42,152 bases of DNA from Patescibacteria group bacterium (GCA_040389345.1 JAZKAE010000001.1:1-42152), one strand, 5' to 3'; shown: positions 41,360-42,152, counted from the first letter of the stretch. A program made the numbers and translations. The notes: generated by a model from the sequence alone, not told the origin.

Positions 41360-41432
41360 TGCGCGTGCCAGGGGTCGAACCTGGGACCTACCGAGTATCA
41401 GTCGATTGCTCTACCAGCTGAGCTACACGCGC
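41360..41432 (-). tRNA. tRNA-Ile (anticodon GAU), CCA not encoded
   Basis: Acceptor stem GCGCGUG/CACGCGC, D arm UAGCUCAGCUGGUAGAGC, anticodon arm AUCGA-CUGAUAC-UCGGU, T arm CCAGG-UUCGACC-CCUGG. Confidence 0.95.
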
Positions 41433-41554: not shown

Positions 41555-41580
41555 AAGAAAAGACACCCCGAGGGGCGCCT
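41555..41580 (-). terminator. Intrinsic terminator after the small membrane peptide
   Basis: AGGCGCCC-CUCG-GGGUGUCU followed by UUUCUU. Confidence 0.7.
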
Positions 41581-41731
41581 AGTGAAAAAGCTTGCTCACG
41601 CCGATACAGATCGGCAACAGGACGAGTCCGAGGAGGGCTATGCATACAAGCCCTCCGATCACTTCGCCGATACCGATCGGCTTTTCGACAGACTGCATGG
41701 GTGCAGCGATGTTGGTGATTCGTCCGACCAT
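41579..41731 (-). CDS. Putative 50-aa single-TM membrane peptide
   Basis: MVGRITNIAAPMQSVEKPIGIGEVIGGLVCIALLGLVLLPICIGVSKLFH; AAGGAG 6 nt upstream; terminator at the stop. Confidence 0.55.
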   Translation of the reverse strand: MVGRITNIAAPMQSVEKPIGIGEVIGGLVCIALLGLVLLPICIGVSKLFH

Positions 41732-41792
41732 GTGCATCTCCTTGTTGAGGTGTCTTTTCGCACTGTACACTTTTTGGTTTTGTGTTGCAAGC

Positions 41793-41816
41793 AAAAACCG
41801 CCCGAAGGCGGCTTTT
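41793..41816 (-). terminator. Intrinsic terminator downstream of the 16S rRNA gene
   Basis: CCGCC-UUCG-GGCGG-UUUUU on the minus strand. Confidence 0.85.
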
Positions 41817-41988
41817 ACTTTTATCGTTCTCTATTCTGTTCCGTTCTCTTTACCCTATATTTTACTATTGGGCTGCGCTTGTCTTTCCAAGTGTCATAGA
41901 GGTTCTAGGAATCCTCTACAATCCATTATATGGTCAATTGAGCCATACAATATCGACTCGATCAGCGCGTCAAAGACGGCGTGTTTCA

Positions 41989-42152
41989 AATTGAATTACT
42001 CCACGAGCAGCTTCCGCTACCCGTGCCTTGTTACGACTTACTCCCTGTCGATGAGCTTACCGTAGGCCCGCATAAACGGGACTTCGGGTACTCCCATCTC
42101 CCTTGAGTTGACGGGCGGTGAGTACAAGACTTGAGAACGTATTCACCGCAGT
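41989..42152 (-). rRNA. rrs: 16S rRNA, 3' end (h44-h45; gene continues beyond the right edge; exact 3' end approximate)
   Basis: Reverse complement contains GCGGUGAAUACGUUC, UUGUACUCACCGCCCGUCA, AAGUCGUAACAAGG and the h45 hairpin with GGAA loop. Confidence 0.97.

Follow-up and report, generated by a model that had tools for sequence, protein, structure and literature searches.

The stretch of DNA analysed here (the window, 42,152 nt) is the entire contig C1 of the MAG assembly G000, which comprises 552,921 bases on 32 contigs and is 92.5% complete. The contig ends within a 16S rRNA gene on the minus strand, and because the gene is cut by this end, only its 3′-terminal 164 nt are present in the assembly. 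With cmscan, the fragment from 42152 to 41989 (-) matches the Rfam model SSU_rRNA_bacteria (RF00177) at 118.9 bits (E 1.3e-33, model positions 1356-1533), the match being truncated on its 5′ side by the contig end. Further along the minus strand, the gene is followed by a structured trailer with a terminator, a small hydrophobic ORF, and a tRNA gene with a start codon directly behind it (Table 1).

Table 1. Features at and behind the 16S rRNA 3′ end in the window
Feature	Position	Strand	Basis or remark
3′-terminal 164 nt of 16S rRNA gene	41989..42152	-	Rfam RF00177, 118.9 bits
AAGUCGUAACAAGG	42039-42026	-	directly before h45
Helix 45 (10-bp stem, GGAA loop), intact	42002..42025	-	cmscan alignment
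h45 5′ strand CACGGGUAGC	42025-42016	-	
h45 loop GGAA	42015-42012	-	
h45 3′ strand GCUGCUCGUG	42011-42002	-	
3′ tail GAGUAAUUCAAUUUGAA, without CCUCC, in place of GAUCACCUCCUUA	41985..42001	-	sequence and cmscan
GA after h45	42001-42000	-	
GUAAUUCAAUUU after GA	41999-41988	-	
GAA closing the tail	41987-41985	-	
First trailer hairpin, variable	~41958-41981	-	trailer alignment
Second trailer hairpin, conserved, GUCGAUAUUGU...AUAAUGGAU	41921..41957	-	RNAalifold, 10 sequences
Third trailer hairpin (UAGAGG...CCUCUA)	41897..41918	-	RNAalifold, 10 sequences
Conserved trailer block GAACGGAACAGAAUAGAGAACGAUAA	41821..41846	-	nearly invariant, 10 sequences
Intrinsic terminator GCCGCC-UUCG-GGCGGUUUUU	41792..41818	-	hairpin and U-run conserved, 10 sequences
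Small hydrophobic ORF (50-52 aa), AAGGAG 6 nt before second ATG (41731)	41579..41737	-	window sequence
tRNA-Ile	41360..41432	-	Rfam tRNA 69.3 bits, aragorn
ATG of 93-aa gene, 2 nt past tRNA-Ile	41357-41355	-	ORF call

Helix 45 (h45) is intact, as the initial annotation had held, and all ten of its pairs are invariant among ten sequences from the genus and family. On the minus strand of the window the helix is followed by GGAGUAAUUCAAUUUGAA instead of the canonical GGAUCACCUCCUU, and the last ten model positions (cACCUCCUUu) align to UAAUUCAAUU in the cmscan alignment. The GAUCACCUCCUUA that stands immediately past h45 at a canonical 16S 3′ end is thus replaced by GAGUAAUUCAAUUUGAA, and the altered tail described in the initial annotation holds to the base. 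Neither CCTCC nor CTCCT occurs in the 300 nt past h45 of the window. The observation of a 16S rRNA without the anti-Shine-Dalgarno (anti-SD) sequence is confirmed and real. The mature 3′ end of this rRNA would lie at or just after ...AAUUUGAA.

A displaced anti-SD further downstream could mimic such a loss. Ten sequences from the genus and family have the trailer elements in common and in the same order, with the terminator ~200 nt past the 16S gene. The second hairpin is strongly covarying, with 7 of 15 pairs changed on both sides (RNAalifold, 10 sequences), while in the third hairpin all six pairs show compensatory changes, with some broken cells. The CCUC within this third hairpin is paired inside the stem, and its sequence is not conserved. 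The conserved trailer block, which reads GAACGGAACAnAAUAGAGAACGAUAA in the 10-sequence trailer, may be the 3′ half of a pre-16S processing stem. From the structured trailer and the terminator it follows that the 16S gene is its own transcription unit, with no 23S gene next to it and no displaced CCUCC; as no 23S gene lies behind the 16S in any of the ten genus and family members, the rRNA genes are unlinked. Displacement of the anti-SD by an insertion or intron was rejected, there being no conserved CCUCC downstream in the ten aligned trailers up to the terminator and never one in the genus, in agreement with what had been stated from the window alone. The first hairpin was also considered as a degenerate displaced anti-SD. 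Its 5′ strands are pyrimidine-rich (CUCU, CCUC, CUUCUC, GUCC) in some species, and the idea was dropped because G000, which has the strongest class of AGGAG-led genes (see below), reads GCCGUC there.

The position of the tail near a contig end raises the question of an artefact, that is, chimerism at the contig end, an rrs pseudogene in truncated form or wrong binning, with the real 16S rRNA still carrying CCUCC. The gene is indeed cut after 164 nt, and we found no second rrs copy and no other 16S or 23S piece in the 92.5%-complete assembly. Hence no other copy with CCUCC came to light, but the RF00177 profile search of the G000 contigs gave 0 matches and missed even the known 164-nt fragment, so that its negative is weak. 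Short rRNA fragments at contig ends escape this profile search, whereas cmscan scores the fragment in the window at 118.9 bits.

Comparison with related genomes speaks against an artefact. Among 40 relatives searched, 19 gave a 16S match, which included the 3′ end in 18 (eight of the same genus, one of the same family and nine of other families of the same order). CCUCC is missing within 20 nt of h45 in 18 of these 18, so that the tail is a property of the lineage and does not stem from misassembly. The tail GGAGUAAUUCAAUUUGAA is identical in all eight same-genus relatives, including G007, a 100% complete assembly in three contigs with a single full-length 16S gene. The ten further family and order genomes have related tails without CCUCC, and those of the other families are variants keeping GGA-N-U-N-N-UUC. 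Anywhere in the 300 nt past h45, CCTCC occurs in 3 of the 18 relatives, at 116, 183 and 212 nt, which are unrelated positions, and in none of the genus. The canonical combination of h45 and CACCUCC was found in 178 of 401 sampled genomes of the phylum, a count of pattern presence rather than of loss frequency, in 5 of 16 other genomes of the class, and in 0 of 8 genomes of this order (G000 counted).

The conservation of the trailer, with its covarying hairpins and terminator, speaks against an artefact as well. In addition, a 655-nt Logan contig of run X1 bridges the junction, spanning trailer, tail and h45 (41700-42029) with 0 differences; as X1 is probably the source sample, this contig is not independent support. 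Further X1 contigs share the tail and have different trailers beyond it. Six RNA runs contain only 9-13% of the sampled words, and in the three RNA runs compared, contigs cover only the conserved part of the 16S; one RNA contig of a relative (X16) extends into a trailer. Taken together, the artefact reading is effectively already refuted, and the chance that we leave to it is practically negligible.

As CCUCC is absent both from the tail and from the ~200 nt of trailer before the terminator, the ribosome cannot make canonical SD pairing. The SD-independent ribosomes suggested in the initial annotation are supported by G-poor regions upstream of the genes, a peak of promoter boxes at -12 and frequent overlapping starts. 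Gene starts were examined on 592 ORFs of at least 80 aa, called at the leftmost ATG with no motif information and covering 88.8% of the genome; given such simple calls, the fractions of gene classes below are rough. A 50-kb stretch of E. coli K-12 with 61 genes served as positive control. G is depleted before G000 starts (14-20% at -13..-5), while the same script finds 34-46% G at -12..-7 in E. coli. The frequency of SD 5-mers was determined at -13..-8 and compared with a control window at -43..-38. In G000, 45 of 572 genes carry such a 5-mer against 14 in the control window, and the counts are 57 of 737 (control 24) in G010, 31 of 592 (control 14) in G007 and 15 of 305 (control 12, a weak difference) in G034, compared with 17 of 61 (control 1) in E. 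coli. The genome-wide picture is therefore divided: SD motifs are mostly scarce, as expected for an SD-independent ribosome, but there is a weak, positioned enrichment in accessory genes, to which we return below. Scarcity of SD motifs alone does not prove loss of their reader, because G099, a genome of the same phylum with the canonical GGAUCACCUCC tail, also lacks SD enrichment (9 of 368 genes versus 12 in the control, first 400 kb). G099 displays a modest peak of -10 boxes at -12 (42 of 368).

The conserved tail might itself be a re-coded anti-SD, in which case mRNAs would have a motif complementary to it (within AAAUUGAAUUACUCC) ahead of their start codons. Its conservation, identical in the genus and UUC plus A/U-rich across the order, is what such a role would predict and shows that the tail is under some constraint. 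However, when -20..-1 is compared with -60..-41 or with internal ATGs, no 5-mer or 6-mer complementary to the tail is enriched. Duplex energies between the tail and positions -22..-3 are no better than those of the same two controls, with a mean of -2.22 versus -2.44 and -2.61 kcal/mol (one-sided p 0.99). Complementarity between upstream regions and the new tail, which had been raised along with the tail itself, thus finds no k-mer or duplex-energy support, and we regard a re-coded anti-SD as exceedingly unlikely. On these measures the new tail is not a replacement docking sequence; our guess is that it is conserved for a role in 30S assembly or 3′ processing.

The dominant start signals in this genome are of two other kinds, a -10 box 7 nt before the A of the ATG and an overlap or close spacing of stop and start codons. 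The top enriched upstream words are TATAAT, TATACT and GCTATA. The pattern TANNNT peaks only at -12, where it occurs in 97 of 572 genes of G000 compared with 9-32 at other offsets (-40 to -6), and 47 of these 97 genes have the extended form TGnTAnnnT. The same position is occupied in 134 of 592 genes of G007, 114 of 737 of G010 and, over 323 kb, 42 of 305 of G034, which belongs to another family of the order. Internal ATGs (0-1%) and E. coli (1 of 61) lack the signal. In same-start orthologue pairs the -10 box is kept in 56 of 71 cases with G007 and in 75 of 89 with G010. A -10 hexamer at -12..-7, fixed ~7 nt upstream of the start with no peak at internal ATGs, has the geometry for transcription starting on the start codon, pointing to leaderless mRNAs; we infer these in G000 from promoter geometry.

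Coupled starts are similarly frequent. The genome has 384 pairs of neighbours on the same strand; in 47 of them the genes overlap by 4 or 1 nt, and in another 60 they are 0-10 nt apart. When start classes are made exclusive, the 592 genes of G000 divide into 141 leaderless-type, 139 coupled, 40 SD-like, 256 unclassified and 16 contig-edge starts. The 42 genes of the window comprise 9 leaderless-type (-10 box at -13..-11), 16 coupled, 1 SD-like and 16 unclassified starts, bearing out the leaderless and coupled starts noted there from the outset. Leaderless transcription as the main replacement for SD-led initiation in this lineage, starts behind tRNAs (below) included, is supported by quantitative data that agree across four genomes of the order.

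A further group of starts lies directly behind tRNA genes. The ATG of a called gene follows within 6 nt of 4 of the 39 tRNAs in G000, 5 of 42 in G007 and 3 of 46 in G010. The tRNA-Ile and 93-aa gene of the window, an arrangement also present in G010, are predicted to form a tRNA-punctuated, near-leaderless start. Three such pairs are conserved between species, namely tRNA-Ile with the 93-aa gene, tRNA-Val with a ~250-aa gene and tRNA-Thr with an RF2-like gene; tRNA-adjacent starts elsewhere include G007 C2:244805-244886, G010 C2:71442-71517 and G010 C7:1494-1569. The RF2-like gene adjoins its tRNA in G007 (C2:244884-245762) and G010 (C2:70561-71442), where it is one open frame with no SD-dependent +1 frameshift site. 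In G000, the only release factor assembled is RF1-like (C5:7155-8126), although TGA stops occur in 28 of the 322 G000 genes with a G007 orthologue.

Punctuation of transcripts by tRNAs is known from mammalian mitochondria. By analogy, tRNA processing would release near-leaderless mRNAs here in a mitochondria-like manner. The likeness extends to the ribosome, as the mammalian mitochondrial small-subunit rRNA is also without an anti-SD (PMC10582724). A -10 box that lies close to the ATG and at constant spacing is shared with leaderless-dominated systems such as Deinococcus and mycobacteria, and in Deinococcus deserti 47% of mRNAs are reported to start exactly at the start codon. The present lineage differs from Deinococcus and mycobacteria, in which the anti-SD has been retained together with many SD-led genes. 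For leaderless starts in Parcubacteria or CPR we found no published statement in the accessible parts of the literature, PMC12641178, PMC12641261 and PMC6851277 included.

These results are best accommodated by an explanation in which the whole order has replaced the anti-SD tail GAUCACCUCCUUA by a conserved A/U-rich tail (GAGUAAUUCAAUUUGAA in this genus), so that its ribosome is unable to dock mRNAs through canonical SD pairing. Most operon-first genes would be transcribed as leaderless mRNAs and loaded directly, as their start signals suggest, and some leaderless mRNAs would be released by tRNA processing. Downstream operon genes would be translated via termination-reinitiation coupling. A minority of ~5-8% of genes, almost all of them accessory, would retain leadered transcripts in which an AGGAG-type motif sits at the SD distance from the start. 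We consider this explanation very probable as a whole: an order-wide loss of the anti-SD, initiation that is mainly leaderless and coupled, a tail that is no docking site, and a 16S rRNA gene that is ordinary and functional in a Parcubacteria (CPR) bacterium.

Marker genes place the lineage more closely. The tallies cover 41 genomes, of which 36 are at least 90% complete; they include G000 and the unpublished G018, which enters the counts but contributes no sequence. Ribosomal protein uL1 (PF00687) was found in none of the 41, G000 among them, while 14 of 14 controls matched; the tail-binding assembly GTPase Era (TIGR00436) gave no match above cut-off in the 41 genomes, only other GTPases being matched. 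Era recognises GAUCACCUCC (PMC10582724) and is reported to be absent from most CPR (PMC12641178). IF3 and KsgA are present in G000. Concerning the two ribosomal proteins bS1 and bS21, whose status bears on SD-independent initiation according to the initial annotation, G000 has bS1 as a 393-aa protein with four S1 domains. For bS21 there are only sub-threshold matches (14 of 41 genomes), the candidate in G000 being an 84-aa basic protein with 22.1 bits against TIGR00030 (cut-off 28.95). The 0.55-Mb genome, the lack of matches to uL1 and Era, and relatives of 0.4-0.9 Mb fit membership of the Parcubacteria.

Tsurumaki et al. (2022, RNA 28:1041, PMC9297842) detected the CCTCCT anti-SD motif in no more than 48% of Parcubacteria, with an overlap between its loss and the group that lacks uL1. 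Both marks of this subgroup, a missing CCUCCU at the 16S 3′ end and the absence of uL1 (0 of 41), are found here, as is bS1 with four S1 domains, and the lineage matches the anti-SD-less, uL1-less Parcubacteria described there. In nothing essential does it differ, as far as a comparison with the accessible part of PMC9297842 goes, which gives detection rates and does not single out this genus. The replacement tail, the leaderless promoter geometry and the residual SD-like class are not described in that part, supplements aside. The loss of the anti-SD is thus already known for this lineage. It had initially been ranked among features reported in only a few reduced lineages, but it is published for about half of the Parcubacteria (PMC9297842) and is thus more widespread than that. 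Few departures from this near-universal trait of bacterial ribosomes are known, and the window adds one more example of a published loss.

A 2024 survey lists Ca. Campbellbacteria, Ca. Wolfebacteria, SR1, Carsonella, Hodgkinia, haemoplasmas and Flavobacteriia as anti-SD-less. These taxa share with G000 the lack of CCUCC and a low proportion of SD-pairing genes (2-8% there, 7.9% here by the 5-mer measure), with the difference that pairing in the survey is measured against the tail that each organism actually has. The tail of G000 finds no pairing partners, and it is the canonical tail, now lost, that the residual motif would fit. Bacteroidota likewise have SD-poor genomes and A-rich, G-poor start regions (summarised in PMC10783764). 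They differ in that CCUCC is still in their rRNA, where it is sequestered (PMC10783764), while here it is gone.

In Bacteroidota, sequestration of the anti-SD is combined with a bS21-dependent release. Such a mechanism cannot apply here, because CCUCC is gone from the rRNA. A class of genes in G000 that retain an SD-like motif is hard to explain. AGGAG starts at -12, -11, -10 and -9 in 4, 9, 4 and 2 genes (19 in total), where ~1 per offset is expected from its genome frequency, and other upstream offsets have 0-1. The motif, AGGAG, GGAGG or GAGGU, lies 5-7 nt before the ATG (e.g., C4:4049, C10:2929 and 3403, C19:14151, C32:7310). Motif and spacing are those of SD-led genes, while the complement in the organism's own 16S tail is absent. 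Leaders of this class are C/A-rich (C 29-41%, G 8-15% at -25..-13), and almost no TANNNT occurs in their last 30 nt, with TTGACA, TAGGGT and AGAGTA words further upstream. G-poor leaders, the scarcity of TANNNT near the start and the upstream promoter words make the class look leadered and SD-led.

An example lies in the window itself, in the small hydrophobic ORF behind the 16S terminator (motif and second ATG at 41731-41745, minus strand). With fewer than 80 aa, this ORF fell below the length threshold of the gene calls. In five relatives (L003, L006, L007, L016 and L018), the genes occupying the corresponding position also have GGAGG/GAGG-type motifs ahead of them. At least two members of the AGGAG class are miscalls: one is an ORF antisense to the 16S trailer, and for KsgA the start was set too far upstream.

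One account of this class is that the motifs are unread relics, not yet decayed, of genes acquired horizontally from SD-using donors. Consistent with it, 39 of the 45 class genes are without a blastp match in G007, compared with 206 of 531 other genes (Fisher p 4e-10). Their GC3 (0.604) exceeds that of core genes (0.537) and of other accessory genes (0.517). The motif is found mainly in accessory genes, in 34 of 172 non-coupled accessory genes as opposed to 3 of 150 shared ones. The class consists of genuine genes, apart from the miscalls: among 20 class genes tried, 11 have Pfam matches (E up to 0.01), seven of them above the curated cut-off, and the domains include ABC transporter, ClpP-like, Clp_N, SPFH, NUDIX, PEP-CTERM and response-regulator receiver. 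The PEP-CTERM sorting motif, which would be unexpected in CPR, is C-terminal in a 271-aa accessory protein of the SD-led class (G000 C16:183-998; 27.4 bits, cut-off 20.7).

Several features fit less well with relics. The genes occur singly among core genes on more than 20 contigs, a scatter that also rules out contamination as their source. Of ten same-start orthologues in the sister species G010, nine are syntenic, and seven retain an SD 4-mer at -15..-7 (an eighth has GGGGG), compared with 2 of 124 non-SD genes, at protein identities of no more than 34-83% (genome median 85%). Because some leaders are still alignable, this retention suggests selection and is not proof of it. The leaders are uniformly G-poor apart from the motif, resembling a maintained design. 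No near-identical donor emerged for the one gene tried, an ABC transporter gene, whose best match outside the lineage is 43% identical and comes from a DPANN archaeal MAG. Weighing both sides, we consider relics of horizontal transfer plausible, if somewhat short of probable.

The persistence of the motif is hard to square with a ribosome unable to read it. One way out would be that the signal is read without a classical anti-SD, by a protein, another RNA or a leader-trimming enzyme, providing a second initiation channel reserved for fast-evolving accessory genes; we rate this as unlikely but conceivable. CsrA was considered as a reader of GGA and dropped, since no CsrA was found and the one weak match lies within the S1-domain protein.

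Alternatively, an anti-SD could still be present elsewhere, behind an insertion, on a small RNA of its own or in a different exposed stretch of rRNA, and read the AGGAG-led genes. The positioned and conserved class with its G-poor leaders and promoters further upstream would agree with this, and the mix of motif variants is as expected from complementarity to ...ACCUCCU.... Against it stands, besides the lack of a conserved CCUCC in the ten trailers, that the pyrimidine runs of the first hairpin covary as a stem and differ between species. Internal CCUCC sequences in the full-length 16S of relatives are, by eye, not conserved or lie in predicted stems. As to a CCUCC-bearing RNA encoded in trans, 63 intergenic segments are conserved in G000, G007 and G010. 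The 19 run against Rfam, a weak test, comprised those bearing CCTCC or CTCCT and some others; 11 contain a tRNA and 8 gave no match. We therefore judge a hidden anti-SD to be very unlikely; the remainder of our expectation for this class is made up of it and of explanations that we have not thought of.

If the AGGAG class is truly read, SD-like signals can work without an anti-SD; if it is a relic, it can serve to gauge how fast, and from where, CPR genomes take in genes. We did not find either this class or the tRNA-adjacent starts in print, where supplements may contain more. One further stretch conserved in the genus lies on contig C31 of G000, which contains Ns: ~1.2 kb (365-1530) without an ORF of at least 80 aa and without an Rfam match is 93-96% identical to G007 and G010.
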